This document shows, piece by piece, positions 6,049 to 63,988 of a stretch of DNA of 64,000 nt; position 1 is the first letter of the stretch; the number at the start of each line of letters is the position of its first letter. The notes beneath the pieces were generated by a model. That model worked only from the letters and a program-made list of their open reading frames with translations, had not been told where the DNA came from and searched no databases. This DNA comes from a virus (Duplodnaviria; Caudoviricetes): IMG/VR virus record IMGVR_UViG_3300020577_005315, positions 1 through 64,000 of that record, one strand, 5' to 3'. A program made the position numbers and the translations under genes.

Positions 6049-6786
6049 GTGGCGCATCACAAGAAGGCTATCCCCTTGGACGACTGGATCAAGGCGCGCG
6101 ACGAGAACATCGCGGCCCGATTCAATCAGCCCGAGAAGTTAGGTTCTAAGCCCCTCACCGAACGGCACAAGAGGTATCAACAGGTCATCCGAGATAAGGC
6201 AATCACCGTCGCTATGGGTCCGGCAGGTACGGGTAAGAGCGGTCTGGCGTGCGAGGTGGGCGTCGAGCTGTTCCGTCAGGGGAAGGTCAAGAGTCTGCAG
6301 TTTTTCCGCCCCCTCATCCCCTGCGGCCCGGAGCTCGGCTTTCTGCCCGGCGACATTCACGAGAAGGTGGCGCCCTACTCCGCCCCCATGACCGCGTTCC
6401 TGCGTAAGCTGCTGGGCGACGACCTGGACACCCTGCTCATGAAGGGGGTCGTCCAGATCAACGCACTGGCCACGCTCCGGGGGGCCACGTTCGACAACGC
6501 GTTCGTGGTGTTGGACGAGGCCCAGAACGCACAGTTCAGTGAACTTCACATGTTCTTGACCCGTTATGGCAAGGGCAGTAAACTCGTCGTCAACGGCGAT
6601 ATTCGCCAATCTGACCTGGGAGTCCGCAAAGCTCGGTGCCCCTTCTATCAGGTGGCGTCGGTCATCCACAAGGACCCCGAGGTCGGGTTCGTGTTGTTCC
6701 GGGACGAAGACGTCCTCCGCCCTGACATCGTGAACCGGATCGACAACGCGCTGTACGACTACCTGGACGAGAAGAACGGTAAGTAA
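6049..6786 (+). CDS. phoH: PhoH-like ATPase
   Basis: GPAGTGKS Walker A, 'LGFLPG', 'RGATF', 'LDEAQN', 'GDIRQSD'. Confidence 0.95.
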   Translation: MAHHKKAIPLDDWIKARDENIAARFNQPEKLGSKPLTERHKRYQQVIRDKAITVAMGPAGTGKSGLACEVGVELFRQGKVKSLQFFRPLIPCGPELGFLPGDIHEKVAPYSAPMTAFLRKLLGDDLDTLLMKGVVQINALATLRGATFDNAFVVLDEAQNAQFSELHMFLTRYGKGSKLVVNGDIRQSDLGVRKARCPFYQVASVIHKDPEVGFVLFRDEDVLRPDIVNRIDNALYDYLDEKNGK

Positions 6787-6798
6787 AGGAGATGATTA

Positions 6799-7296
6799 GT
6801 GGCGCTTAACCATTCCGCGCTATTGGACGAGATCCAGAGCGGCCCTCTGGCCGCCACTCTCGCTCCGCTCGTGCAGGCCGGCGACGACGCTGGCGTTGCG
6901 AAAGCTCTGATGGACCCGCAGTTCGATGGGTACATCCTACCCGTCCCGCTTCTGAAGCTGCTGACTGAAGCGGGCACCGTAGCTCTGCTCGACCTCATTC
7001 GCGAGCACGGACTACTCCCTAGCGCCAACCCGTCCCTCCCGCCCAGCACTCCGGCCCCTACCGGTCTCATGGTACTGGCCTACCGCCTTACTCGGGTGTT
7101 CGACCACGGGCTGCGGATGTCCAAGGCCGACGCGGTCGCGGGGTGTGACGTCCTCGTCGCGTCCCAGCTGATGACCACTGATGTTCGGGACGCGGTGTTG
7201 GCGCTTGAGGTCAAGATCGGGCGGGCTCAGGTTCTGTGGTATTACGACGCAGTGGTGACCGGCAACGACGTCGCCCGCGCTTTCGGTAGGAGCTAA
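6799..7296 (+). CDS. Hypothetical protein
   Basis: AAGGAG SD; 165 aa; in the same operon as downstream fibre genes. Confidence 0.55.
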   Translation: MALNHSALLDEIQSGPLAATLAPLVQAGDDAGVAKALMDPQFDGYILPVPLLKLLTEAGTVALLDLIREHGLLPSANPSLPPSTPAPTGLMVLAYRLTRVFDHGLRMSKADAVAGCDVLVASQLMTTDVRDAVLALEVKIGRAQVLWYYDAVVTGNDVARAFGRS

Positions 7297-12705: not shown

Positions 12706-14163
12706 ATGACTCTCCCACTGGCTACGTACTACACGACCGCTTACGGCCCCGGGCAGACCGTCGATCAGTCGGTCCCATCCCGGTCGTTGGGTGGGTACGC
12801 GGCCACCAACCAGTGGAACGGCGGCGTACAGTTCGACCTGTTCAACACCGCCCAGGACACGGACGTCGTCAACAGCCGCCCCGACTACCGGGCGGTGTAC
12901 GTCTATAACCCGGACCCGTCTCACACCTACACGGACGTCCGCGTCTACGTCATCCCTCGCACGCCGGGTGCGACCAACTTCTTCCCGGCGGTCGACCCGA
13001 TGCCGCCGAGCTACATCGACAGCACGTCGCCTCAGGGCGTCGACGTCTCGACCCCGTACACCGCACCAGTCGGCATCACGTTCGGCAACAGCGCCCTCAG
13101 CTACGGCACCGGCGTATCAATCGGCGACCTGGTCCCACAGTCGGGGCGGATGGTGTGGTTGCGTCGCGTTCCTTTAGCCACTGGCGGTCCCCAGGATACG
13201 GTCGACGTCGTCTTCCAAGCGGCGGACCTGTCGTCGCTGTCCCGACGCGTGTACTGGGAAACGGTCACGACGACCGTCAGTCAGTACCAGCCGTCGCTCA
13301 TCCCCGGCTACGTCCCGACGTCCACGCCGTTCACGGACGTTAAGGTCGACTTCATGTCCACCGGCGGCACCCGCGTCACCTGGCAACTCAGCAACCAGAT
13401 GGTCGACGGCGGTGTGTACACTTACCAACTGCAAGTCGCCCAGACGGGCACCGCCGCTAGCGATGACTGGATCAATGTAGGCGCCCCGGCCGTTGACGCC
13501 CCGGCGCTGTACGACGCGGAGCAGCGGATCTGGGGCATGACGCCCACCATCGCTTACCGCGTGGTACTCACGACCGACGGCGGTCAGTACACGTCGCCGC
13601 CCGCGCAAGCGTTCGGCCTATTAACCGTCAAGGACACACTCCTGCGGACCGAGATGATCCGCAAGGAGACGCTCAGTCTGCGAACCCTTACGGGCGTCAA
13701 CGGTTACCTACTGAAGGCCCGCAGGTACGGAACGCGGTGCTCGTGCGTCGACCCTGTGACGTTCGAGATCACCAACTCCTCCTGCCCCACGTGTTACGGC
13801 GTCGGGTTCGTCGGCGGCTACTACGCCCCGGTCTATTTGACTTTCGCCTCCATTCCGGGGAAGAAGGCCACGGAGCGGGTGCTGTACAACGAGACGCTGG
13901 GGACGGATCGCCCCGTTACTCTTAGGGGTCGGATGCCGGCGGACACCCTCATCTCCGCCCGTGACGCGTGGTGCGCCGTAGGTAGCGACGACCGTTACTA
14001 CGTCCACGAGATTGAGGAAAAGGTCGCGTGGCGAGGATACCCGGTTATTTACGACGTCGAGCTAAGATTGGCTCCCAGATCGAACATTCTTTACACCTTT
14101 GAACTCACTCGTCCGACCACGCCGCTGCCGCCCTACGCCCAACCCGAAGTCCTACAACTCTAA
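12706..14163 (+). CDS. Putative neck/head-closure protein with Zn-finger
   Basis: 'RCSC...CPTCYGVGFVGGY' motif as seen in large-phage neck proteins. Confidence 0.5.
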   Translation: MTLPLATYYTTAYGPGQTVDQSVPSRSLGGYAATNQWNGGVQFDLFNTAQDTDVVNSRPDYRAVYVYNPDPSHTYTDVRVYVIPRTPGATNFFPAVDPMPPSYIDSTSPQGVDVSTPYTAPVGITFGNSALSYGTGVSIGDLVPQSGRMVWLRRVPLATGGPQDTVDVVFQAADLSSLSRRVYWETVTTTVSQYQPSLIPGYVPTSTPFTDVKVDFMSTGGTRVTWQLSNQMVDGGVYTYQLQVAQTGTAASDDWINVGAPAVDAPALYDAEQRIWGMTPTIAYRVVLTTDGGQYTSPPAQAFGLLTVKDTLLRTEMIRKETLSLRTLTGVNGYLLKARRYGTRCSCVDPVTFEITNSSCPTCYGVGFVGGYYAPVYLTFASIPGKKATERVLYNETLGTDRPVTLRGRMPADTLISARDAWCAVGSDDRYYVHEIEEKVAWRGYPVIYDVELRLAPRSNILYTFELTRPTTPLPPYAQPEVLQL

Positions 14164-16919: not shown

Positions 16920-17128
16920 CTCCTCCAACGTCCACAGAAGGGGGGTGATGTACTCTGCCGGGAGCCATGTGTAGTAGGTGCAAGGGTTACCACTCGCCAA
17001 TGGAGCCCTGTGCCTACCAGTAGATTCGCCCGAGTGGGTTGAGTGACTCGCTCGGGCGAACATGACAACTATTCTGATCCCCGCGACGGCCAATCGGCCG
17101 TCGCTTTCTTTTATTCGTGGAGACGCCT

Positions 17129-17992
17129 GTGAAGCTCGAGACCCTCGAAGGCCGCGAAGTCCCCGCCGTCATCGGCACCGCCGGCGACCTGTTCACCGTC
17201 AACCCGGCGGACATCCCGACCGGCGTGACCCCGCTCCCCGCCGGCGCGTTCGTCGGCACACCCGACGGCACCGTCGGGCAGCTGCAGGCGTTCCTGAACC
17301 CGAACGACCTGTCCCAGCTCTACAACGTCAAGTTCGCGATGACTCCCGGCCTGGCCGGACGCGTCGAGATCTCCACGTACGAGGGCGTCGTCGTCTACAA
17401 CGGGTTCCCGTTCGGCGACGACGCGCGCTACGGTGGGACGATCGCCGTCATACGCGCCCAGCCGGGTGAGGCCAACCGTCTCGCGTTCGGCATGCCCGGG
17501 GCGGGCGCCGGCCCGCGCGTCGGCATCCTGGCGCTCACAAGCGTTTCGACCGACCCGCCCCGCGTCGAGATGGTCCAGAGCTTCTTCGCCCTGGACGCCG
17601 AGTACCGCGGGGGCATCAAGATCCAGTCGTGCCCGGAGGGTATGAACGGGCCGGCCGCCCTGCTGTGCCTGCCCGGGGCCGGGGGCGGGCCCGTGTGTAC
17701 GATCATCGACGTGAACACGGGCGTGATCAAGGCCACGGTCCTGGCCGGCCCCGCCGACGACCGGTCCGGCGACTACCACTTCCCCTCGCAGGGCAGCGGC
17801 GTGTCGTCCCCGTACGTCGACGGCGTCCCGACGGTGTGGTCCTTCATCGTCGGCCGCGGGTACCACGCCGCCACCGCGACCGAGCCGCCGCGGTTCGACA
17901 GCGTCAAGGCGTTCAGCATCGACCCGATGTCGGAGCAGTACCCGATCGGCGCCGACGTCACCGTCCTGTTCGACGCGCTCAAGCTCGACTAG
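17129..17992 (+). CDS. Planctomycete-type extracellular protein (LEPR-XLL/Planc_extracel N-terminal motif plus FG-GAP-like repeats)
   Basis: GTG 17129 after GGAG gives MKLETLEGREVPA; repeats 'FPFGDDARYGGTIAV..PGAGAGPRV' and 'FFALDAEYRGGIKI..PGAGGGPV'. Confidence 0.75.
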   Translation: MKLETLEGREVPAVIGTAGDLFTVNPADIPTGVTPLPAGAFVGTPDGTVGQLQAFLNPNDLSQLYNVKFAMTPGLAGRVEISTYEGVVVYNGFPFGDDARYGGTIAVIRAQPGEANRLAFGMPGAGAGPRVGILALTSVSTDPPRVEMVQSFFALDAEYRGGIKIQSCPEGMNGPAALLCLPGAGGGPVCTIIDVNTGVIKATVLAGPADDRSGDYHFPSQGSGVSSPYVDGVPTVWSFIVGRGYHAATATEPPRFDSVKAFSIDPMSEQYPIGADVTVLFDALKLD

Positions 17993-18001
17993 CGGGGCGA
18001 C

Positions 18002-18217
18002 GTGATGACCCGTTCTGTTACACGAGACCCGCACGGACTTGTGGTCACTGGTGCGGAAGAACGGGGGGCTGACGGTTTCATACACATCGTCAGCCCCCCG
18101 TTCGCCTATATCAGCCCCCCGTCCGCCAGTAATCGTAATTACCGGGAATACTACCGCGTGTGGTGGTGTTTACCGTTCGGGGGCTCGTGGCTATTCGTTC
18201 AGGACGAGGAAGGTTGA
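18002..18217 (+). CDS. DEEG-tag family protein (array 1, #1)
   Basis: Ends VWWCLPFGGSWLFVQDEEG*. Confidence 0.7.
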   Translation: MMTRSVTRDPHGLVVTGAEERGADGFIHIVSPPFAYISPPSASNRNYREYYRVWWCLPFGGSWLFVQDEEG

Positions 18218-18245
18218 CCCGTGGAGTACTACTGAGGATCCGTGA

Positions 18246-18827
18246 ATGAGCACACCCAAGCCGGTTAACGCGTGTCGAGACGTGTGTCGGCAGGCGTTCG
18301 GCGTTGTCACTGTATTCTGTAAGCGTGGGGGAGGTAAGTCCGGCGTGACTTCGCATCTCCTCCACACGCGCCCGTCGGGCGAGAAGCGTACCCGCTTTAA
18401 CCCTCGCGAGGTCGACACGAGCGGTCTCGTCGATGACGACGGGCCGTTGTGGGGTTGGCCTAGCGGCGTCATTGACGTAGCGTCACTACGTTATGCGGGC
18501 TCCGAGTTCGCCCGACGGGTACGGCCGGACCTCGCGGTCCACGACGCTGACACGGCGCTACAGATCGCACGCGCCATGTCACCCCAGGAGCTCAATTCGC
18601 ACCTCTCGTGGTGTCACGACATCGACGCGGAGTGGGATGAGGCCGTCGTCCAGGCGTACCTCGACCGCCCCGACGTCGGGGCGTCCATCGACCGTGTGTG
18701 GGCCGAGAACGTCCGACTCTGGGACGAGGAGTCGGCGTACCTCGCGACGTTACCCGACCAGGAGGGGCCGGTGTGGTACGGCTTACCGGACTACCAAGAA
18801 CTGTTCGTTCCGGACGACGAGGGTTAA
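18246..18827 (+). CDS. DEEG-tag family protein (array 1, #2)
   Basis: Ends VWYGLPDYQELFVPDDEG*. Confidence 0.7.
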   Translation: MSTPKPVNACRDVCRQAFGVVTVFCKRGGGKSGVTSHLLHTRPSGEKRTRFNPREVDTSGLVDDDGPLWGWPSGVIDVASLRYAGSEFARRVRPDLAVHDADTALQIARAMSPQELNSHLSWCHDIDAEWDEAVVQAYLDRPDVGASIDRVWAENVRLWDEESAYLATLPDQEGPVWYGLPDYQELFVPDDEG

Positions 18828-18842
18828 CTGTTGGAGGCCGAC

Positions 18843-19064
18843 ATGATCCGTGCGTTGTTACGAGCGTCTCAAGACGTCAATGTCTATCTTGAGCGTGGCA
18901 TCAGGAGTATCCGGCTGAACGTCGGATCGCGCCTGAAGCGTCACGTCCTGGCCAAAGACGAAAGGTACCGCCTCGTCGGTAAGAAGCCGCTGAACGAGGA
19001 ACAGTTTATCACGTCGCTCCTCCCCAACGGGTTGTCACTGTTCGTCCCGGACGAGGAGGGCTAA
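18843..19064 (+). CDS. DEEG-tag family protein (array 1, #3)
   Basis: GGAGG SD and ATG 18843; ends LLPNGLSLFVPDEEG*. Confidence 0.7.
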   Translation: MIRALLRASQDVNVYLERGIRSIRLNVGSRLKRHVLAKDERYRLVGKKPLNEEQFITSLLPNGLSLFVPDEEG

Positions 19065-19086
19065 CCACGAGGTGAGGAGTACTACC

Positions 19087-19512
19087 ATGAGCACGCCGAT
19101 CGCCATGCACCGCGAACACCACGTGACGGTGTTCTTCCCGCGTACTGACACCGCCGACCGAACGTCCGGTGCGGTGGTGTCACGCGCGGTCAGCACCGCA
19201 ACGCACCCGACCGTGATCCGCGACCCGCCGCCTGTGCCGGCCGAGGTGAAGGCGGCGGTCAGGAATTCGCCGGCTTTACAGCTGCTGAGACACGAGCTCC
19301 GCAAGAAAAGTTCGCGCCGCAGACTCCCGAGAACCCGTGGTACGTTAGGCGTCTTGACGCCTAACGAAATCGCCCACGCCCGAACGCTGCTCGACCACGA
19401 TAGGGCGCACACGCTGCACCTGCACACGAAGCAGCTGTCTCAGGACTTCAAGGTCCTGTGGCAGAATCTGCCTAGGGCGCACTACCTGTTCGTCCCGGAC
19501 GAGGAAGGTTGA
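19087..19512 (+). CDS. DEEG-tag family protein (array 1, #4)
   Basis: GAGGAG SD and ATG 19087; ends LWQNLPRAHYLFVPDEEG*. Confidence 0.7.
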   Translation: MSTPIAMHREHHVTVFFPRTDTADRTSGAVVSRAVSTATHPTVIRDPPPVPAEVKAAVRNSPALQLLRHELRKKSSRRRLPRTRGTLGVLTPNEIAHARTLLDHDRAHTLHLHTKQLSQDFKVLWQNLPRAHYLFVPDEEG

Positions 19513-19537
19513 CCGACACTATTAACAGGGGAAAATT

Positions 19538-19870
19538 GTGCCTAACAACGCGCTCGAGGCCCTGAGAGCCCGGTGGAGGGGGTTTGTGACGGTCGCTCGT
19601 GGCGAGTTCATCGGTGGCGGACCCGAACCGACGTTTTTCATCGACGACAAACGTCGGCTCGAACAGATCCACGACCAGGCTAAGCGAATCGACGTCGGTA
19701 AGCCCGCGCTACGAGACTTCGACGGCAACTCACGTCTTGCCAACGTCTGGGCACGGCTGCCGGGTGGGTCGATTTTGTACGCACACATCAACCGCACCAG
19801 CGGTAAATTGCCGCGTGACGTGACGCGGCAGATGTGGCGCGAGCTGTTCGTGTTCGACGAAGAAGGCTGA
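19538..19870 (+). CDS. DEEG-tag family protein (array 1, #5)
   Basis: Contains VWARLP and ends MWRELFVFDEEG*. Confidence 0.7.
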   Translation: MPNNALEALRARWRGFVTVARGEFIGGGPEPTFFIDDKRRLEQIHDQAKRIDVGKPALRDFDGNSRLANVWARLPGGSILYAHINRTSGKLPRDVTRQMWRELFVFDEEG

Positions 19871-19899
19871 TCCTGTTCCTCTGACTTGAAAGGAAGACG

Positions 19900-20097
19900 A
19901 TGTCCAACGTCCGCCGCGTCCGCCTCGCGAAGTTCCTCAACCCGACGGCCGCCGACCTCAAGGTCGACCCGAAGCAGTACTGCCTGGGGCACCTGGACTA
20001 CTTGATCTGGCGCAAGGAGGCCAAGCTGGTCCACCGGGGCGCCAGGCAGTACGTGGAGTACAACTGCGTCCGGGAGCCCATCCGGACGCACCACTGA
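19900..20097 (+). CDS. Small hypothetical protein
   Basis: AAGGA SD; high GC3; followed by a terminator. Confidence 0.55.
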   Translation: MSNVRRVRLAKFLNPTAADLKVDPKQYCLGHLDYLIWRKEAKLVHRGARQYVEYNCVREPIRTHH

Positions 20098-20103
20098 CCG
20101 TCG

Positions 20104-20138
20104 AGCCCGGGGTGACCCCCGGGCTTTTTCTTAGCCGT
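20104..20138 (+). terminator. Rho-independent terminator
   Basis: GC-rich AGCCCGGGG/CCCCGGGCT stem, TTTT tract, then CTTAGCCGT. Confidence 0.85.
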
Positions 20139-46021: not shown

Positions 46022-47299
46022 ATGATGACGACGTCGTTGGAAGTGGCGACCCCGGTTGCGGACATGTTCAACCAGATGGCCGACTGCATGCAGCGGGGCG
46101 GCGTCCCGGCCCTGATGGGTCCGCCCGGCGTCGGCAAGACCGCCGGCATGGCCGCCGAGGCGAAGAGGCGGGGGCTGGAGCAGTACGTCATCATCGGGTC
46201 GCAGTGCGACCCGACCGACCTGAACGGGTTCCCGGTCGTCGACACCGATACCTCGGTCGTCGACTCGCAGCAGCGCAGCCACCCGGTCCTGAAGTTCGCG
46301 CCGCGCCGGATCTTCATCGACGCGGTGCAGCGGCCGTCGCAGATCCTGCTGGACGAGTTCACCTGTGCCTCGGCGGCCACCCAGGCCGCGATGCTCCGGG
46401 GCATCAACGAGCGGCAGTTCGGGGAGTTCTACGTCGACCCGGAGGTCGTGCAGCTGGCGATCCTGTACAACCCGCCCGAGGTGGCCACGAACGGGACGGA
46501 GATCTCCCTGCCGGCCGCTAACCGGCTGGAGCACTTCACCATGCCGGAGTTCAGCAGCAAGGACGTGGTCGAGGAGTGGTGCGACGGGTTCCTGCGGTAC
46601 TGGGGCGATCCGCCCAAGATCCAGTTCGTTCCGAACAACCCGTCGCACCCGTCGCACCTGAAGATCCCGGAGAGGGTGTTCCGGGTGGCGCGGTCGATGG
46701 TGGTCGGGTACCTGCTGTCGAACCCGTCGCAGCTCGCGCCCAAGCGGTCCGTCGACTCCGCCAACGGCGTCCTGGCCTTCCCGACCCCGCGGTCGTGGGA
46801 GAAGGTCGCGCGCGCCATCGCCCTGTGTCTCCACCGCGACCAGCCGGTGGTTCAGGCGTACAAGGCCACGATCGCCGCCGTCGGCACCGGGGCGGCCACC
46901 CCGTTCCACGCGTTCATGGAGCGGGCCCGGCTCCCCGACCCGGAGCAGCTGCTCGCCCAGCCGGACAGCTACGTGCCGACCGGCGAGATCGACACCGACT
47001 TCGTCACCCTCGACGCCGTCGCCGCGGCGGTGGTCAGCAACGACACCCTGCCCCGCCAGATCGCGGCGTGGAAGGTGCTCAGGCGGGCCGCCGGCGTGTC
47101 CGACGGCGAGGGGAAGAAGATCAAGGCCCGCGAGTCCGCGGTCAGCGCGGTCCGGCAGCTGGTGCCGCTGGTCCGCAGCCTGACCAAGGTGGATAACCAC
47201 GGCAAGATCGACCCGCAGCAGGTCGCCGACGCGATCAAGACCGTCACGGCCCTGTCGGCGCCGTACAGCTCGCTGTTCAAGTCGCTGATGCACGAGTAG
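46022..47299 (+). CDS. MoxR-like AAA+ ATPase
   Basis: GPPGVGKT Walker A, 'DPTDLNGFP', 'LLDEF' Walker B, 'PAANR', 'PTPRSWE'. Confidence 0.9.
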   Translation: MMTTSLEVATPVADMFNQMADCMQRGGVPALMGPPGVGKTAGMAAEAKRRGLEQYVIIGSQCDPTDLNGFPVVDTDTSVVDSQQRSHPVLKFAPRRIFIDAVQRPSQILLDEFTCASAATQAAMLRGINERQFGEFYVDPEVVQLAILYNPPEVATNGTEISLPAANRLEHFTMPEFSSKDVVEEWCDGFLRYWGDPPKIQFVPNNPSHPSHLKIPERVFRVARSMVVGYLLSNPSQLAPKRSVDSANGVLAFPTPRSWEKVARAIALCLHRDQPVVQAYKATIAAVGTGAATPFHAFMERARLPDPEQLLAQPDSYVPTGEIDTDFVTLDAVAAAVVSNDTLPRQIAAWKVLRRAAGVSDGEGKKIKARESAVSAVRQLVPLVRSLTKVDNHGKIDPQQVADAIKTVTALSAPYSSLFKSLMHE

Positions 47300-47307
47300 T
47301 CGAACAG

Positions 47308-47331
47308 ACAGCCCCGGCCGGGGCTGTTTTT
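47308..47331 (+). terminator. Palindrome/terminator
   Basis: ACAGCCCCGG|CCGGGGCTGT palindrome followed by a T run. Confidence 0.6.
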
Positions 47332-47369
47332 AGCCCCGGCCTTCTACCCCGCCCCACCCCGAGGACACG

Positions 47370-48875
47370 ATGACGGCAACTGCCCAGGAGACGGACAAGG
47401 CGATGAGCGACGAGCACAAGGGTAAGCACAAGAAGTGCAAAGGCAAGGAGGAAGAGCGTCGGCCGGCGTCCGACTTCAACCAATCGGAGCTGGACGACAA
47501 GCTCGAGATGGCGCGGATGTTCATCCAGATGCTCTGGCCGTACCTGTACAGCGGCGTCGCCAAGATGTCCCCGCGGTGGTGCACCCACCCGCACCTGCGG
47601 ACGATGGCCGTCGACAAGTACTGGCGGCTGTACCTCGACCGCGAGCACGTCAACAACATCAGCCACTCCGAGCTGGCGCTGATGCTCGTCGGGCACGAGC
47701 TGATGCACCTGATGTACGCCCACAACGACCGCCTGATGGAGCACCAGGACTCGTTCCTGATGAGCCCCACCGGCGACCTGGTGTCGTTCAACAACTTCGT
47801 CGGGGACATGGCCATCAACTGCAGTCTGCAGGCGGTCCTCGACGCGGGCATGAAGTACTACCAGCAGACGTCCGGGCGCGGCATCCAGAGCGGCAAGGTC
47901 ACGGTCCCGACCGACATCCTCCTGCCGACCAACTTCAAGGACAAGGCTGGCAACCCGTTCCCGGACGGACTGCTCCTCGAAGACTACGCCCAGCTGCTCA
48001 TCGACAACGCCCGGGAACCCGAGGACGGGGGTGATGATAAGGGTGAGAAGAAGGGCGGTTGGACGCTCTTCACCCGCAACGGTAAGGGTAAGGGAATCTC
48101 GGGGCCGGGCAAGGGCTGTGACTGCGGCTCCGGCGCGGACGGCAACGACCGCGAGTGGGAGGACAAGGACAAGCCCGACCCACGTAACCCGAAGACCGGC
48201 CTGTCGAAGGAGCGGCAGGACATCGAGCGGCAGTCACTGGCGGAGAGCATCAAGAACCACGAGGCCAAGCACCCTGGCACCACTCCGGGCGGCATGGTGC
48301 TCTGGGCCGACGTCCACCTTCGGCCGGTCAAGGAGCACTGGTCCAAAATCCTGTCGCGGGTGCTCCGCTCCGGCCTCGGTACGCTCCGCGGCGACTACGA
48401 GGTCTCGTACGCCGTCCCCAACCGGCGGTCGATCGCCACGCGATCGCAGATCATCCTGCCCGGTCGGCTGACGCCGAAGCCGAACTTCGCCCTGCTGCTC
48501 GACACGTCGGGCAGCATGGGGGAGTCCGACTACTCCAGCGCGTTCAGCCACATCCAGGCGATCCTGAAGCAGTGCGACGTCAAGAAGGTGCCGTTCCTGG
48601 CGTGCGACACGGAGGTCGCCGAGGTCCGCTACATCTCGTCCCTCAAGGACGTGAAGTTGGTCGGCGGCGGCGGCACCGACATGCGGGTGGGGATCGAGAA
48701 GGCGCACGACGTGTTCCCCCACAACCGCAAGAGCCTGGTCATCTGCCTGACCGACGGGTATACTCCGTGGCCGAGTGAGAAGCCGGCGAACATGGAGGTG
48801 GTCGTCGTCCTCACCCAGAAGACGGACGCCCAGGTGCCGAGCTTCTGCCGCGTCGTCCGCGCTTACGACGACTGA
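47370..48875 (+). CDS. Metallopeptidase-like (HExxH) plus VWA domain protein (DUF2201-like)
   Basis: 'TMAVD', 'HELMH', 'DMAIN', MIDAS 'DTSGSM', 'GGGGTD', 'LTDG'. Confidence 0.85.
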   Translation: MTATAQETDKAMSDEHKGKHKKCKGKEEERRPASDFNQSELDDKLEMARMFIQMLWPYLYSGVAKMSPRWCTHPHLRTMAVDKYWRLYLDREHVNNISHSELALMLVGHELMHLMYAHNDRLMEHQDSFLMSPTGDLVSFNNFVGDMAINCSLQAVLDAGMKYYQQTSGRGIQSGKVTVPTDILLPTNFKDKAGNPFPDGLLLEDYAQLLIDNAREPEDGGDDKGEKKGGWTLFTRNGKGKGISGPGKGCDCGSGADGNDREWEDKDKPDPRNPKTGLSKERQDIERQSLAESIKNHEAKHPGTTPGGMVLWADVHLRPVKEHWSKILSRVLRSGLGTLRGDYEVSYAVPNRRSIATRSQIILPGRLTPKPNFALLLDTSGSMGESDYSSAFSHIQAILKQCDVKKVPFLACDTEVAEVRYISSLKDVKLVGGGGTDMRVGIEKAHDVFPHNRKSLVICLTDGYTPWPSEKPANMEVVVVLTQKTDAQVPSFCRVVRAYDD

Positions 48876-57790: not shown

Positions 57791-60700
57791 ATGGTTAAGC
57801 ACAACAGCAAGCTGCCCACGACCTGTGTGAAGCGCGACGGCGCCACCGTGCCTTTCGACGGCGAGAAGATCGTCAAGGCAATCCGTCGCTGCTTCGACAA
57901 CGTCTGGGCGGACGAACGTACTCTCGCGGACAAGAGCGTCGACGACGTCGTCGGCAACATCTACGGGCGGGTGCTCAATGTGATCGCGGCCCAGAAGGCC
58001 GACCAAGTCAGCGTGGAAGACGTCCAACGGTTCGTCCTCCACGTCCTCTGGTCGGACAAGCTGTACGCCGCGGCCGAGCACTACCAGAACTACCGAGAGG
58101 ACCGGCGTAAGGCCCGGTTCAACACGGCCGTGACCCCCGACCGCCTGGAAACGGTCAAGGCGGACCAGAAGCACTTCCCGACGGACCTGCAGTACTACCA
58201 GTTCATCGGAAAGTTCTCGCGCTGGCGGGACGCCGACCGCCGCCGGGAGACGTGGAAGGAGACGGTCACGGAACGGGTGATGCCCTGGTTCAAGGGCTTG
58301 CCCGGTGCCCAGCTCGAAGACGCCGAGTGGAGCATGCTGCAGGACAGCATGTACAACCTCGAGTCGTCCCCGGCCATGCGGGTCGTGCAGATGGCCGGGC
58401 CGGCGCTGCAGAGGGAGCCGCTGGGATGCTACAACTGTCTGGGCGTCGAGACGGCGTTTATCACCCGTAATGGTGTGAAGACGTTTCGAGACTTCAAAGA
58501 CGGCGACACTACCGTGGTGCTTACGCACACCGGCTCCTGGAAGAACGCTGTCGTTCGAAACTACGGCGTCCAGAAGCTCTACACACACCACATCAATCGC
58601 TCACGCACCAAAGTGACTGTTCGCGCCACGGCCAACCACCGCTGGGTGCTGAGTGACGGTAGTGTTCAAACCGGGCTCAAGGCGGGCGATAAGCTCCACT
58701 TGCCGCCGTGTCCGTCGATCAACTGGAACTACGACGCTGCAGAACCGCTGGAGAAGCTCTACTGGGCGTACGGATACGTGTACGGCGACGGTACCCGCGT
58801 CAAGAAGGACGGTGAGTACACGTACTCGATGGTTCGTCTCTGTAAGAACGACCGTGGGTACCTTGAGCGATTCGAAGAGCTCGGTTTCGGCTCCAGTAAT
58901 CCGTTGTCGTGTAAGGGCGACCCGATCGTCTACACTGGTAGCTACCTCAAGACTCTCCCCGAGTTGACCGACGACTTGGGCGTGATCCGGGCTTTCGTAC
59001 GCGGCTACCTGGACGCGGACGGCGGTAGTGGTCACCCCCAGTCGCCGAACGACTTCTCCTGCATTCAGGTGACCGGCGAACAGTCTATCGAGTTCGTTCG
59101 ACGCGTGTTTCCCGTCGCGGGCTACTACATCACGCGCGAAGAGGTTGTCGACAAGGACACCAATTTCGGTCCGCGCTCGGCTCTGACAATTCGGTTCGGA
59201 CTGACGAACAACTTCGGCGTTGCGACGAACCGGTTCTACGGGTTGACGTCGAACGTCGAAGACGACGGTAGTCCGCCGGAAGAAGTGTGGTGTCTCGAGG
59301 TCGAAGACGACCACTCGTTCGTGCTCCCGTCAGGTGTCGTCACTGGAAACTGCGCTTATGCACCGATTGTCGACAGAACGTCATTCTCTGAACTCCTGTA
59401 CGTACTCATGCAGGGGACGGGGATGGGGTTCTCAGTCGAAAACGACTACATCGACGAGCTGCCTCGCATCAAGAAGCAGCGTAACACCCCTCGGGAACGG
59501 ATCGTCGTCCCGGACAGTACTGAGGGGTGGTGCAAGTCGTACGACCGCTACCTGGAGCTCCTCTGGGACGGGCGTGAGGCGGACATCGACGTCTCGTTCG
59601 TCCGCAAGGCGGGCAGCCGCCTGAAAACTAAAGGCGGGAAAGCATCCGGTCCGGGGCCTTTCCTGGAGCTCTGCTCGTTCGCCAGCAATCTGTTCAAGTC
59701 GCGTCAGGGTAAGTACCTGACCGACCTGGATTGTCACGACCTGGCCTGCATGACGGGTCGGATTGTTCAGGTGGGCGGCGTCCGTCGGGCGGCAGAGATC
59801 TCCTTGTCCGACCTGAACTCGCGGGCGATGCGGGACGCCAAGTCTGGCGCGTGGTGGACCAACAACCCGCAGCGGTCGATGGCGAACAACTCGGCCGTCT
59901 ACGAGGAGAAGCCGGACTCTACGACGTTCATGGAGGAGTGGCTGGCGCTCACCAAGTCCCGCAGCGGCGAGCGCGGTATCTTCAACCGGCAGGCCGCGCA
60001 GCTACACAAGCCTAAGCGTCGTAAGATGGTACGATTTGGCGTTAACCCGTGCGCGGAAATATTACTTTCGCCTCATGGTTTGTGTAATCTCAGTATGTGT
60101 ATCGCACGTCAGAACGATACCGCCGAATCGCTACGACGTAAGGTCCGTGCCGCCACATACTTCGGCAAGCTGCAGTCGCTGTGTACGAACTTCAATTACG
60201 TCCGGTCCGACTGGAAGCGTAACGCCGAAGAGGAGCGTCTCCTGGGTGTGGACATCACGGGTCAGGCCGACTGCCCCTTACTGAGGTTCAACTCTCAGAC
60301 CGATCGGGCCGCTCTCCTCCGGACGCTCCAGGAGGAGGTCCTGTCAGTCGACCGGATGCTGGCCGAACGCTGGGGCATCAACGTCTCCGCGGCAGCTACG
60401 ACCGTAAAGCCGGGCGGTGACTCTGCGGTGTTCTTCGACTGCTCTTCGGGCGTGAGCCCGCGTTTCAGCCGGCACCAGATCCGGTGGGTGCGAGAGTCGA
60501 AGGACAGTCCCGTGGCCCGCTTCCTGATCGACAGCGGCGTTCCGCACGCCCCGGCCCCCGAGGCCCCGGATCGCCTACTGGTGTTCGGGTTCCCGAAGGC
60601 TGCCCCGACCGGCTGTACGCTCCGTGACGACATGACCGTGATCGACCAACTCGAGAACTGGCTGACGTGGAAGGAGAACTGGGCCGAACACTCCGTGTCC

Positions 60701-60970
60701 GCCACCATCTACGTCGGCGACGACGAGTGGCTGACGGCCGGGAATTGGGTCTACAACCATTTCGACCAGATCACGGGCCTGTCGTTCCTTCCGCGGGACA
60801 ACGGCACCTACACGTACGCCCCGAACGAGGAGATCGACGAGGCGAAGTACGGCGAGATGATGAACTCCTTCCCTGACCTCAACTGGGCGAAGCTGTCCGC
60901 CTACGAGGAGGAGGACATGACCGAGGCCGCTATCACGTTCGCCTGCGTGGGCGGCGGCTGCGACAACTAA
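57791..60970 (+). CDS. nrdJ: Class II (adenosylcobalamin-dependent) ribonucleotide reductase with ATP-cone and intein
   Basis: ATP-cone 'VKRDG..VPFDGEKI', 'YNC', 'GTGMGFS', 'GGVRRAAEI', 'NPCAEI', 'TVKPGG', C-terminal 'ACVGGGC'. Confidence 0.92.
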   Translation: MVKHNSKLPTTCVKRDGATVPFDGEKIVKAIRRCFDNVWADERTLADKSVDDVVGNIYGRVLNVIAAQKADQVSVEDVQRFVLHVLWSDKLYAAAEHYQNYREDRRKARFNTAVTPDRLETVKADQKHFPTDLQYYQFIGKFSRWRDADRRRETWKETVTERVMPWFKGLPGAQLEDAEWSMLQDSMYNLESSPAMRVVQMAGPALQREPLGCYNCLGVETAFITRNGVKTFRDFKDGDTTVVLTHTGSWKNAVVRNYGVQKLYTHHINRSRTKVTVRATANHRWVLSDGSVQTGLKAGDKLHLPPCPSINWNYDAAEPLEKLYWAYGYVYGDGTRVKKDGEYTYSMVRLCKNDRGYLERFEELGFGSSNPLSCKGDPIVYTGSYLKTLPELTDDLGVIRAFVRGYLDADGGSGHPQSPNDFSCIQVTGEQSIEFVRRVFPVAGYYITREEVVDKDTNFGPRSALTIRFGLTNNFGVATNRFYGLTSNVEDDGSPPEEVWCLEVEDDHSFVLPSGVVTGNCAYAPIVDRTSFSELLYVLMQGTGMGFSVENDYIDELPRIKKQRNTPRERIVVPDSTEGWCKSYDRYLELLWDGREADIDVSFVRKAGSRLKTKGGKASGPGPFLELCSFASNLFKSRQGKYLTDLDCHDLACMTGRIVQVGGVRRAAEISLSDLNSRAMRDAKSGAWWTNNPQRSMANNSAVYEEKPDSTTFMEEWLALTKSRSGERGIFNRQAAQLHKPKRRKMVRFGVNPCAEILLSPHGLCNLSMCIARQNDTAESLRRKVRAATYFGKLQSLCTNFNYVRSDWKRNAEEERLLGVDITGQADCPLLRFNSQTDRAALLRTLQEEVLSVDRMLAERWGINVSAAATTVKPGGDSAVFFDCSSGVSPRFSRHQIRWVRESKDSPVARFLIDSGVPHAPAPEAPDRLLVFGFPKAAPTGCTLRDDMTVIDQLENWLTWKENWAEHSVSATIYVGDDEWLTAGNWVYNHFDQITGLSFLPRDNGTYTYAPNEEIDEAKYGEMMNSFPDLNWAKLSAYEEEDMTEAAITFACVGGGCDN
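58436..59350 (+). mobile_element. Intein with LAGLIDADG homing endonuclease (305 aa)
   Basis: Begins CLGVET after YN; block B 'ATANHRW'; 'GYVYGDG' and 'GYLDADG'; ends 'VWCLEV..HSF..GVVTGN' before the +1 Cys. Confidence 0.92.
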
Positions 60971-61065: not shown

Positions 61066-61113
61066 GAGTCGTTAGTGAATTCCTTGCGACGCCTAGCAGA
61101 TCGAGAGGAAGAC

Positions 61114-61725
61114 ATGCAGCTCGTAAGCGACTTTCGCGACTACTACGACTGGGCGTTTGACCGTGACGGGGTCGTGTTCGACAGGATGGCTCGTAACAGC
61201 GGTCCAAAGAAGGCTGCTCAGTTCAGCATCCTCCGCGACACACTCGGACACCTGACTCCGCCCGTCGGACCTGTAAACTGCGTACTCGGGACGAAGTGGC
61301 GGGGTAAGACGATCGACAAGGTCGTTGCCTACACGGACGACGCGGCTCACTGCGGCGAGGGTAAAGAGCTCGTCACACTAGACTCAGACGGCTGGCGGAC
61401 CAACACTACGCTCTGTTCGGCGTATTTAGGTAAGCCGGGGCTGAGTTGGAGAAAACTACACGTAGGTCCGCACGTGTTCTGGATCGAGTACACGTCCACC
61501 GAGTCGTGGATGTCGAACGTGGGTGACGGAACGTGCGAAGTCATCGGCGTCGAGATGGACTTTGGCATCACAATATACCCGCTCCTGGCGATCGACTTCG
61601 TCCTGGACGACGAGATGTACGCGGTGGACCTGAACGTGGCTCCGGGGATCAAAGGCAGCGGCGTCGAGAAGCTCCTCCCGGCTGAGCAGGTGGTCGAAGC
61701 GATCAGACGTTGGTGTGCTTGGTAA
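61114..61725 (+). CDS. ATP-grasp-like protein (divergent/short)
   Basis: GAGGA SD; 'HCGEGK' loop, 'WMSN', C-terminal 'LLAIDFV...YAVDLNVAPG' resembling the RimK-type D..ExNxxPG motif. Confidence 0.55.
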   Translation: MQLVSDFRDYYDWAFDRDGVVFDRMARNSGPKKAAQFSILRDTLGHLTPPVGPVNCVLGTKWRGKTIDKVVAYTDDAAHCGEGKELVTLDSDGWRTNTTLCSAYLGKPGLSWRKLHVGPHVFWIEYTSTESWMSNVGDGTCEVIGVEMDFGITIYPLLAIDFVLDDEMYAVDLNVAPGIKGSGVEKLLPAEQVVEAIRRWCAW

Positions 61726-62165: not shown

Positions 62166-62171
62166 CGCATG

Positions 62172-62196
62172 ACCCCGGGGCGACCCGGGGTTTCTT
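62172..62196 (+). terminator. Rho-independent terminator
   Basis: ACCCCGGG-GCGA-CCCGGGGT-TTCTT (GNRA loop). Confidence 0.75.
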
Positions 62197-62211: not shown

Positions 62212-62430
62212 ATGCAGATACAAAGGCACCTCCTGTGGGTGTCGGGACGTGGTGACGATGATAAGCTGATAATCGGGATGAATGTTTTAGTGTTTGGTGG
62301 AAAGTACAGCGAAGTCGTAATCGACGCAGTGAAGTTCACGTACGAGGAGGTCACAACACTCGACGCCGACTGGTTTATCGATCACCTGCCGGAGTTCGAC
62401 GGACTGTTCGTCTTTGACGAAGAGGGCTAA
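62212..62430 (+). CDS. DEEG-tag family protein (array 2, #1)
   Basis: Ends FIDHLPEFDGLFVFDEEG*. Confidence 0.7.
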   Translation: MQIQRHLLWVSGRGDDDKLIIGMNVLVFGGKYSEVVIDAVKFTYEEVTTLDADWFIDHLPEFDGLFVFDEEG

Positions 62431-62432
62431 CG

Positions 62433-62645
62433 ATGACTCGAACCAGCGAGCTGTCTCGGTGTCTCACGTATGACCACGAGTACTACTTCACAGTGATGAA
62501 TCAATACGACTGGCACACTTGGTCTAGGATCACCGTGTCAGTCGACAGCCCGGAGTTGAACGGACACTGGATCCGGCACCTGACGGCGATTTGGTTGAAT
62601 CTTCCCAGGAACGACGAACTCTACGCCTACGACGAGGAGGGGTGA
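62433..62645 (+). CDS. DEEG-tag family protein (array 2, #2)
   Basis: Ends IWLNLPRNDELYAYDEEG*. Confidence 0.7.
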   Translation: MTRTSELSRCLTYDHEYYFTVMNQYDWHTWSRITVSVDSPELNGHWIRHLTAIWLNLPRNDELYAYDEEG

Positions 62646-62647
62646 GC

Positions 62648-62878
62648 GTGTACTGCCGATCGAGGAGTCATAGCGATAGAACGGAGCTACTGTACAGATA
62701 CCTACACAGTCTGACGGTGGCGGTAGACACCCGCTGTGGTAGAGACGTCGGCGTCGTCGTGTACGCGTTCAGTGGACGTGACCGCCGCGACGACACGCCC
62801 GAGACACAACAACTGACAGTACTGTGGCGCGCTCTGCCCAGGGGAAAGAAGCTGTTCACCCCGGACGAGGAGGGTTAA
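62648..62878 (+). CDS. DEEG-tag family protein (array 2, #3)
   Basis: GTG 7 nt after GAGGAGG; ends LWRALPRGKKLFTPDEEG*. Confidence 0.7.
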   Translation: MYCRSRSHSDRTELLYRYLHSLTVAVDTRCGRDVGVVVYAFSGRDRRDDTPETQQLTVLWRALPRGKKLFTPDEEG

Positions 62879-62880
62879 CC

Positions 62881-63075
62881 GTGTCGGTACGTCTCACTGG
62901 AATGTTCCGCTACTACGGCACGACGTTGGTCGCCGTCGATAACGTCGTCAAGTGCGACGCCAACTTCATCGTATCACACGGTGGACCCGATGCGGCACAG
63001 GATGTAGAGTTCGATCGCGTATGGAGACTTTTGCCACATCGGGGAAACCTGTTCACCCCGGACGAGGAGGGCTGA
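62881..63075 (+). CDS. DEEG-tag family protein (array 2, #4)
   Basis: Ends VWRLLPHRGNLFTPDEEG*. Confidence 0.7.
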   Translation: MSVRLTGMFRYYGTTLVAVDNVVKCDANFIVSHGGPDAAQDVEFDRVWRLLPHRGNLFTPDEEG

Positions 63076-63077
63076 CC

Positions 63078-63308
63078 GTGTCGACGTGTCTCATCAACAT
63101 GTATCGCTATTACGGCACGACGTCTTTCGTAAGAATGTATCGCTATTACCACATGGCGTCAGTCGCCGTCGATAACAACGTCACGTGCGACATCGACCTC
63201 ATCACATCACACAGCGGATGCGTTGTGGCGTATGATACAAAGTTCGAACGTGTGTGGAGTAGTCTGCCACAGATGGAAGACCTGTTCACTCTGGACGAGG
63301 AGGGCTGA
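63078..63308 (+). CDS. DEEG-tag family protein (array 2, #5)
   Basis: Ends VWSSLPQMEDLFTLDEEG*. Confidence 0.7.
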   Translation: MSTCLINMYRYYGTTSFVRMYRYYHMASVAVDNNVTCDIDLITSHSGCVVAYDTKFERVWSSLPQMEDLFTLDEEG

Positions 63309-63310
63309 CC

Positions 63311-63508
63311 GTGTCGACGTGTTTCATCAACATGTATCGCTATTACGGCACGCCGTCGGTCGCTGTCGACAGTTACGACAAGAATGACGCCGGCGTCATC
63401 ACGTCACACAGTGGATACAGCTGCTCGGAGCGGGATACAGAATTCAACCGTGTGTGGAGACTTTTGCCGCAGATGAGTGACCTGTATGAACTGGACGAGG
63501 AGGGGTGA
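63311..63508 (+). CDS. DEEG-tag family protein (array 2, #6)
   Basis: Ends VWRLLPQMSDLYELDEEG*. Confidence 0.7.
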   Translation: MSTCFINMYRYYGTPSVAVDSYDKNDAGVITSHSGYSCSERDTEFNRVWRLLPQMSDLYELDEEG

Positions 63509-63510
63509 TC

Positions 63511-63768
63511 GTGTGCGGAAGCGTCGTATTGTCGGTGTTGAGAGAGGTTTGGGGCGGTGGGTGGTTTGGCATCCAACTGTGCATCGGGGACCACCCTCGG
63601 AGCGAAGTCTGGTCGATGCCGGCGATCAATTACGTAGACTTCCGACACACCCTGCCGGACTCGAGGTTGTTTCGTGAAGAAAGCGACGCCCGGCGCGGAA
63701 CCTTCGTGAGGTTGGTCTTCGCGCTACCGAACCGGCGGGAGCTATACGTCTTCGACGAGGAGGGCTGA
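63511..63768 (+). CDS. DEEG-tag family protein (array 2, #7)
   Basis: Ends LVFALPNRRELYVFDEEG*. Confidence 0.7.
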   Translation: MCGSVVLSVLREVWGGGWFGIQLCIGDHPRSEVWSMPAINYVDFRHTLPDSRLFREESDARRGTFVRLVFALPNRRELYVFDEEG

Positions 63769-63769
63769 C

Positions 63770-63988
63770 GTGCGTCACGTGTACAGGATTCAAAGGGGGT
63801 ACCCGGAGCAGTACAACGCGTTAGCTGTGTACACCACAACGCCAACGCCTAGTGTGGTGGAGGCCGCGGATCTGGCCGTACCGCACGTTCTCGGGTTGAG
63901 AACCGAGCGAATTAACGAAGTGTTGATGAAAATCTGGTGGAATCTACCCTGTACCGAAGAACTATACACCTACGACGAGGAGGGATGA
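63770..63988 (+). CDS. DEEG-tag family protein (array 2, #8)
   Basis: Ends IWWNLPCTEELYTYDEEG*; the next GTG at 63991 suggests the array continues past the window. Confidence 0.7.
   Translation: MRHVYRIQRGYPEQYNALAVYTTTPTPSVVEAADLAVPHVLGLRTERINEVLMKIWWNLPCTEELYTYDEEG

Follow-up and report, generated by a model that had tools for sequence, protein, structure and literature searches.

We examined the first 64 kb (positions 1 to 64,000, hereafter called the window) of the 93,520-bp genome of an uncultured phage (IMG/VR record IMGVR_UViG_3300020577_005315; GC content, 0.62), in which nearly all genes lie on the + strand, with regard to a group of small open reading frames (ORFs) whose predicted products share a C-terminal acidic tail. 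Five consecutive ORFs on the + strand, between 18002 and 19870, were confirmed to end in L-F-V-x-D-[DE]-E-G directly before the stop codon, as the first-pass annotation of the window had described, and we call this run array 1. The whole genome contains 16 ORFs tagged in this manner, the remaining 11 of which form array 2, at the right-hand end of the window and beyond it. The features discussed here are listed in Table 1.

Table 1. Features of the array 1 unit and of the other loci discussed in the text (aa, amino acids; nt, nucleotides; GC3, G+C content at third codon positions)
Feature	Position	Strand	Description
Intrinsic terminator-like hairpin	17083-17104	+	9 bp, 8 GC, T-run; upstream edge of the array 1 transcription unit
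291-aa gene	17117-17992	+	Heads the array 1 unit
Tagged ORF 1	18002-18217	+	71 aa; ends WLFVQDEEG (...RVWWCLPFGGSWLFVQDEEG); GC3 of 0.62, the lowest of the array
Inverted repeat inside ORF 1	18059-18103	+	Perfect 16-nt repeat; RNA fold is an 18-bp stem, -48 kcal/mol, z = -5.4; no T-run after it
Tagged ORF 2	18246-18827	+	193 aa from ATG 18246; ends ELFVPDDEG (...PVWYGLPDYQELFVPDDEG)
Tagged ORF 3	18843-19064 (alternative start, 18831)	+	73 aa; ends SLFVPDEEG (...FITSLLPNGLSLFVPDEEG)
Tagged ORF 4	19087-19512 (alternative start, 19072)	+	141 aa; ends YLFVPDEEG (...KVLWQNLPRAHYLFVPDEEG)
Tagged ORF 5	19538-19870	+	110 aa from GTG 19538, 94 aa from GTG 19586; ends ELFVFDEEG
65-aa untagged ORF	19900-20097	+	Closes the array 1 unit; the strain variant L016 has a conserved but diverged version
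Strong intrinsic terminator	20103-20126	+	10 bp, 8 GC, T-run; ends the unit ahead of the conserved 919-aa structural gene
MoxR-like AAA+ gene, then DUF2201_N (putative metallopeptidase) and VWA gene	46022-48875		425 aa (Walker A, GPPGVGKT) and 501 aa
RimK-like ATP-grasp gene	61075-61725	+	216 aa; about 490 nt upstream of array 2, with a 151-aa gene and a terminator between
Array 2, first eight of 11 tagged ORFs	62212-63988	+	Runs to 64685 of the genome, past the window end

The genes of array 1 are separated by stop-to-next-start gaps of 15 to 29 nt, and GGAGG-like sites precede their ATG or GTG starts, in agreement with the earlier description of spaced genes that mostly have their own ribosome-binding sites. 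Upstream of the acidic end, L-P is encoded in all five ORFs and W-x-x-L-P in four, with S instead of W in ORF 3. Between 19748 and 19870, ORF 5 encodes WARLPGGSILY, then about 20 residues, and then MWRELFVFDEEG; the long insert that had been noted between WARLP and LFVFDEEG is present, and it contains a second L-P itself. ORF 2 carries a degenerate second tail copy, LATLPDQEG, immediately ahead of the true tail (18750 to 18827). These partial tail duplications in ORFs 2 and 5 suggest unequal recombination within the tail-coding DNA. ORF 2 has an alternative start at GTG 18345, preceded by a GGGGGAGG site, from which a product of 160 aa would be made, and an independent gene call took ORF 2 from 18345 and ORF 5 from 19586, and omitted ORF 1. 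The "longer payloads" ascribed to array 1 in the first-pass annotation are partly an artefact of this choice of start codons, and the word payload presumes a function of the bodies, i.e., the parts of the products ahead of the tail, while the bodies of paralogues proved near-neutral (see below). The inverted repeat of ORF 1 could have been left by a recombination site, or it could be an element for processing or stability.

Array 1 is an accessory unit bracketed by terminators and inserted between conserved structural genes. The two hairpins at its edges enclose the 291-aa gene, ORFs 1 to 5, and the 65-aa ORF. The 919-aa gene downstream has homologues in two IMG/VR records, with 51% and 29% identity, and the gene order in the closer of these relatives is a homologue of the 485-aa gene (12706 to 14163 in our genome), one 229-aa gene, and the 919-aa homologue. 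Because the closer relative has only the 229-aa gene there, the interval of about 15.0 to 20.2 kb in our genome consists of extra DNA between conserved structural genes; these approximately 5 kb contain a DUF8224 gene, the 291-aa gene, the five tagged ORFs, and the 65-aa ORF. The flanking genes had been called neck and sheath genes. Synteny shows that two conserved structural genes do flank the array, but sequence comparison did not verify the neck and sheath labels, and no sequence relative of the 919-aa sheath candidate was found in the PDB. The statement that the codon use of array 1 is less GC3-biased than that of its flanks holds, with values of 0.62 to 0.80 in the array, compared with 0.94 in the upstream 541-aa gene and 0.81 in the downstream 919-aa gene. 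The product of the 291-aa gene had no matches in Pfam or PHROG at an E value of ≤0.1, and a planctomycete-type N-terminal motif claimed for it is too short for confirmation by profile search.

When 38 members of the family were compared, the motif could be written as [VLFI]-W-x-x-L-P, a linker of 4 to 23 residues (exactly 4 in half of the members, 19/38), and [ED]-L-[FY]-[VT]-x-D-x-[ED]-G at the carboxyl terminus. The L-P and the Asp are invariant, L-[FY] is followed by Val in 23 members, by Thr in 12, and by another residue in 3, and the final Gly is the last residue in 34 members, while the others run on with Glu and further residues. This module takes up the last 20 to 40 residues of ORF products that are about 60 to 190 aa long. 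Its frequency at ORF ends is far above background. The six-frame translation contains 14 copies of DEEG, and a stop codon on the + strand comes immediately after each. DEEG forms the end of 14, and L[FY]..D.[DE]G the end of 16, of the 995 stop-to-stop frames of at least 50 aa in the 93.5-kb genome. When the codons were shuffled 100 times, by comparison, a mean of 0.01 frames ended in DEEG and the commonest terminal 4-mer was found at most four times; no other terminal 4-mer was found more than twice among the real frames. The full bipartite pattern is confined to the 16 tagged ORF ends genome-wide.

Judged from its codons, the tail is under purifying selection at the protein level, and the bodies are near-neutral. 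In the 13 copies within the window, the codons for the conserved residues never differ at positions 1 and 2 but do so at position 3, which gives a period of three: the third position of the final Gly codon is T in 4, C in 6, G in 2, and A in 1, the Leu and Pro codons vary, and the stop codon is TGA or TAA. For a comparison of junctions, we tabulated 34 tagged genes from three sources, for 33 of which the next start was defined. At coupled junctions, where the next start is within 4 nt, 41 of the 42 Glu codons of the tail were GAG and 1 was GAA, whereas GAA made up 4 of the 13 Glu codons at uncoupled junctions, which include all five genes of array 1 (Fisher test, P = 0.009; genome background of GAA, 22%). 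It follows from these GAA substitutions that the amino acids are retained where the ribosome-binding role is absent. Four relatives on the contig L018 have an internal L-P ... L-F-V-x-D-[LV]-D-E about 20 residues ahead of the stop codon. Among the paralogues B3 to B6 of array 2, the ratio of nonsynonymous to synonymous substitution rates (dN/dS) was 0.18 to 0.56 over the last 22 codons and 0.64 to 1.29 over the bodies, with just 22 to 42 codons per comparison. The proposal that the tag has a protein-level function is supported by the wobble, the GAA codons at uncoupled junctions, and the internal motif copies.

Tagged genes form a narrowly distributed multigene family, the arrays of which vary between strains and occupy more than one locus. 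The five ORFs matched no family in Pfam-A or PHROGs at an E value of ≤0.1, the family profile had no sequence relative in the PDB, and a language-model search with ORF 2 gave no usable match. DNA motif scans of IMG/VR, 185,579 species genomes, and JGI metagenomes returned chance matches in tiny or spurious frames only, and a relaxed scan of IMG/VR returned one spurious Arg/Pro-rich frame. A profile search of 1.84 billion representative proteins found, beyond our own proteins, two new members (P0016 and P0018), located on two further contig types; three repeat proteins from the same search were judged not to belong to the family. Word-indexed searches with two alignments gave nothing beyond the contigs already found, and a search of the open literature gave no account of such a tail. 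The contig L018 (8.1 kb) has a run of 12 tagged and 4 internal-motif genes, and the contig L022 (12.2 kb) has a run of 5 tagged genes plus a lone one; the tail aside, neither has anything detectable in common with this genome. Longer JGI contigs, of about 77 kb and 32 kb, are available for phages of these types. Contigs of all three types were present in the sequencing run SRR32380193, and the runs SRR8942262 and SRR10761721 contained L018-type contigs alongside the array 1 region of this phage. The internal-motif genes of L018 (922 to 1901 and 4112 to 4399) encode a four-protein subfamily that reads C-P-x-x-F/W-x-x-L-L-P-R ... L-F-V-x-D-[LV]-D-E plus about 20 residues.

Hypervariability among related phages had been expected at array 1, and the locus did prove variable. 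The array and the family are absent from the two nearest relatives, L012 and L013, according to a profile search of both whole records, which are fragments with 65% and 77% completeness, and no relatives carrying untagged orthologues were found when these were sought. Among strain-level contigs recovered from other samples, L015 is identical to the window, while the variants L016 and L017 are 100% identical to it up to 18878, i.e., 36 nt into ORF 3, and unrelated from there on, so that ORFs 1 and 2 are kept and ORFs 3 to 5 are absent. In L016, 459 nt of unrelated DNA (6535 to 6993 of that contig) with two overlapping short ORFs replace positions 18879 to 19911 of the window, and the second of these ORFs gave a faint Ead/Ea22-like match (E = 0.049); the left flank of the replacement is 100% identical to the window, and the right flank is 75% identical from 19912 on. 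With two arrays in this genome, 12 and 5 tagged genes on the other contig types, and the differences between strains, the earlier suggestion that tagged cassettes expand at more than one locus is supported.

Array 2 has a different layout, with its ORFs packed head to tail and only 1 to 2 nt from each stop to the next start. Because the starts are this close, the GAGGAGGG of the E-E-G codons doubles as the ribosome-binding site of the next gene. The array was recovered unchanged in three other samples, the contigs of which stop at or inside it. Breaks at both ends of array 2 were seen in Logan contigs of other samples, and the DNA directly after it (64690 to 64960 of the genome; 6690 to 6960 of the contig L001) is AT-rich and non-coding, with long T/A runs and a 13-bp hairpin.

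The bodies ahead of the tails have little in common. With the tails removed, only B3 to B6 of array 2 were related according to blastp, and body probabilities remained below 4% when seven subgroup alignments were compared by hhalign, so the all-versus-all comparison proposed in the first-pass annotation left the bodies of different subgroups undetectably related. AlphaFold2 models of a 64-aa and a 110-aa member (35- and 38-sequence alignments) had a mean predicted local distance difference test score (pLDDT) of 59 and were too weak for fold searches. The bodies scored below 50 to 60, and the tails, at 64 to 82, were modeled as a helix up to L-P and then an extended L-F-x-x-D-E-E-G.

Conserved hydrophobic residues (V/L, W, L, L, and F) beside unrelated bodies would fit a surface made for a partner, and we consider the chance that the module serves as an address or docking tail for one common partner to be slightly below even, about 0.45. 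The predicted products are small proteins with a body that shows no recognisable relationship between subgroups and a C-terminal bipartite module. In this module, a short amphipathic helix closes with W-x-x-L-P, a loop of 4 to 23 residues follows, and the acidic end is extended, its carboxyl terminus being free. One partner would grip the tail and thereby bring the varied bodies to the same place, or else the tail would be the active part and the bodies its carriers, with copy number setting the dose. A host hub is a candidate for this partner, as is a virion or scaffold protein of the kind used by the T4 internal proteins. The arrays would grow by tandem duplication, and would be lost or swapped through recombination.

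Several observations weigh against a docking tail. Both AlphaFold2 models were of low confidence, so the impression of disordered or unrelated bodies may reflect the shallow alignments, and the dN/dS values come from few codons. Four members run about 20 residues past the motif, and a free C-terminal Gly would therefore not be obligatory. Neither of the reader candidates that we examined, the RimK-like ATP-grasp protein and the MoxR/VWA pair, gained support. ORF 1 may be a decaying copy rather than a live gene, in view of its low GC3, its strong hairpin, and its omission by the independent gene finder. Finally, the alignments put an Arg near the N terminus in more than 90% of the members, so all of them might share a tiny fold in which the tail is structural and not a label.

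This last possibility belongs to a broader alternative, which we regard as doubtful: the tail could have a structural role or mediate self-association, and no external reader would exist. The family would then represent either one tiny, fast-evolving fold, with the C-terminal helix and strand packed on the strand at the N terminus, or proteins that form mixed oligomers through contacts between their tails. Besides the Arg, most members are only 60 to 85 aa long and would be too small for a separate payload domain, and the motif may be internal, with a helix-like segment after it. A regular expression for Arg plus a hydrophobic strand-like run matched 26 of the 38 members, but this N-terminal pattern is loose and varies with the choice of start codon. 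A common fold is also at odds with the absence of body similarity between subgroups in hhalign, with the AlphaFold2 models, in which the tail is not packed against the body, and with the body dN/dS near 1, which is unlike that of a folded core. A most improbable explanation is that the conserved end persists chiefly to serve translation, as the ribosome-binding site and mRNA context for re-initiation on the next gene, with the peptide as a by-product. It draws on the junctions with a gap of at most 4 nt, at 27/28 of which the last two codons are GAG GGN even when the second residue is altered (DGEG, DAEG, DLEG, and DREG); the single exception (C12) ends in GAC GGC (DEDG), and at the other 27 junctions GAGGG is thereby retained 6 to 8 nt ahead of the next start. 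For array 1, however, this explanation is largely refuted, as the next starts lie 15 to 29 nt off with their own ribosome-binding sites and D-E-E-G is retained with GAA codons. The conserved W, L-P, and L-[FY] lie 20 to 60 nt further upstream and show codon wobble, the internal versions of the motif are distant from any start, and an Rfam scan of the window gave no matches. The motif does not behave as a nucleotide-level start or coupling element, although a secondary ribosome-binding role is present in array 2.

Packaging into the virion would be a special case of docking, in which the tail ties diverse proteins to the scaffold or the capsid interior so that they are injected with the DNA; by analogy with the targeting sequence of T4 internal proteins or with encapsulin cargo-loading peptides it is conceivable, but we think it unlikely. 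The internal proteins that T-even phages encode form a very varied group, the sole common element of which is a conserved targeting sequence (PMC3012670). Like the proteins described here, those that carry the T4 sequence (IPI, IPII, IPIII, and Alt) are diverse, fast-evolving, and small, with variable bodies, one short shared peptide, and loci that differ between relatives (PMC3012670), and array 1 is located inside the structural gene block. The T4 sequence, in contrast, spans about 10 residues at the N terminus, attaches to the scaffolding core, and is cleaved away by the prohead protease, whereas the module here is C-terminal, bipartite, acidic, and unrelated in sequence, with most of its copies outside structural genes; the N termini of the family share at most one loosely placed Arg. 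Array 1 itself is an inserted accessory unit outside the conserved structural operon, and small genes of early type or from the replication side surround array 2 and the arrays of L018 and L022. Furthermore, sixteen would be a large number of packaged species, a conserved protease site was not observed, and the capsid and scaffold proteins of this phage are guesses only. It is highly unlikely, in turn, that the acidic, Gly-ending tail is the substrate of an ATP-grasp ligase that would activate its terminal carboxylate or one on a side chain and add an amino acid or link a target. In favor of such a ligase, the gene about 490 nt upstream of array 2 encodes a protein with a predicted RimK-like fold (language-model score, 0.95 to 0.97; template modeling [TM] score to RimK clusters, 0.72 to 0.79 when normalised by the query) and a Lys, an Arg, and a D-x-N motif that are invariant in 42 homologues, and neither the ligase nor the tagged family is present in the relatives G001 and G002. 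However, a terminator at 62171 to 62192 separates the ATP-grasp operon from array 2, homologues with about 50% identity belong to RecA-DnaB modules of other phages and have no ORF with the tag less than 8 kb away (five loci, on contig fragments), and no homologue was found on L018 or L022, which are contig fragments as well. The replication-module context would fit the modification of nucleotides or DNA better, the terminal residue is Gly instead of the Glu used by RimK and LysX, and no Ser, Thr, or Lys position of the graspetide type is conserved.

Other known systems resemble the tail in part. Encapsulin cargo-loading peptides are C-terminal tags that follow a flexible linker on unrelated cargos and are read by a shell with the HK97 fold, which is the phage capsid fold. 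Their placement after a variable linker on unrelated bodies agrees with the family described here, in which 34 of the 38 members end with the motif and hhalign finds the bodies unrelated. Known peptides of this type, on the other hand, are Gly/Leu/Ile-rich (GSL-type), unlike W-x-x-L-P ... [ED]-L-[FY]-[VT]-x-D-x-[ED]-G, and they serve one or a few enzymes as opposed to 16 small genes in tandem arrays. An ATP-grasp ligase acts on the acidic C-terminal tail of a small protein in the pairs RimK-ribosomal protein S6 and LysX-LysW. Small acidic-tailed proteins and a RimK-like gene near array 2 are found here too, but 34 of the 38 members end in Gly rather than Glu, four are extended by about 20 residues, and the ligase-substrate partnership in the genome is not conserved. 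Microviridin-type graspetides differ in that the family has conserved Asp and Glu residues but no Ser/Thr/Lys position. With the beta-clamp motif Q-L-[SD]-L-F only [ED]-L-[FY] is in common; position -3 before L-[FY] is G, N, R, or C and position -2 is N, D, E, or S, and nothing in clamp motifs corresponds to the invariant L-P and D-x-[ED]-G.

The candidate readers encoded in the window were considered individually. The ATP-grasp protein has no match in Pfam; its fold is supported, but its link to the tail is not, given that its homologues do not co-occur with tagged genes, and the loci of these homologues showed no conserved acid-tailed neighbor. Uncultured phages encode about 50 homologues, most of which are flanked by RecA and DnaB/primase genes and some by a deoxynucleoside monophosphate (dNMP) kinase gene, and the protein may modify DNA or nucleotides. 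No specific link to the tail was found for the MoxR/VWA pair, as the VWA protein has a homologue in the relative G001 as well, which lacks the tag. Mimicry of a host tail received no support either: L-[FY]-x-x-D-E-E-G ends gave one chance match in 401 genomes of Planctomycetota, a host phylum that is itself a guess, and the longer tail pattern requiring L-P four residues upstream gave chance matches only in 185,579 species genomes. Upstream of the ATP-grasp gene, a large ribonucleotide reductase-like ORF (58013 to 60970) appears to contain an inserted LAGLIDADG-like segment (...GYLDADGG...), a putative intein.

Returning to the docking tail, we tentatively suggest that it may represent an undescribed address system of uncultured phages, possibly those of Planctomycetota, in which all tails would be bound by one reader (a hub of the host, or an assembly or enzyme complex of the phage), and in which the phage would tune the repertoire and the dose of the tailed proteins as cassettes are gained and lost, accordion-like, at several loci. 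Array 1 provides a natural control that array 2 cannot supply: the tail is kept there although it is uncoupled from the ribosome-binding site of the next gene, which separates the constraint on the protein from that on the RNA. If the tail is indeed an address label, a single peptide would open at least 16 uncharacterised phage proteins together: a pull-down with the tail would identify the reader, and the identity of the reader would tell the purpose of these proteins, be it injection, host take-over, or counter-defence.

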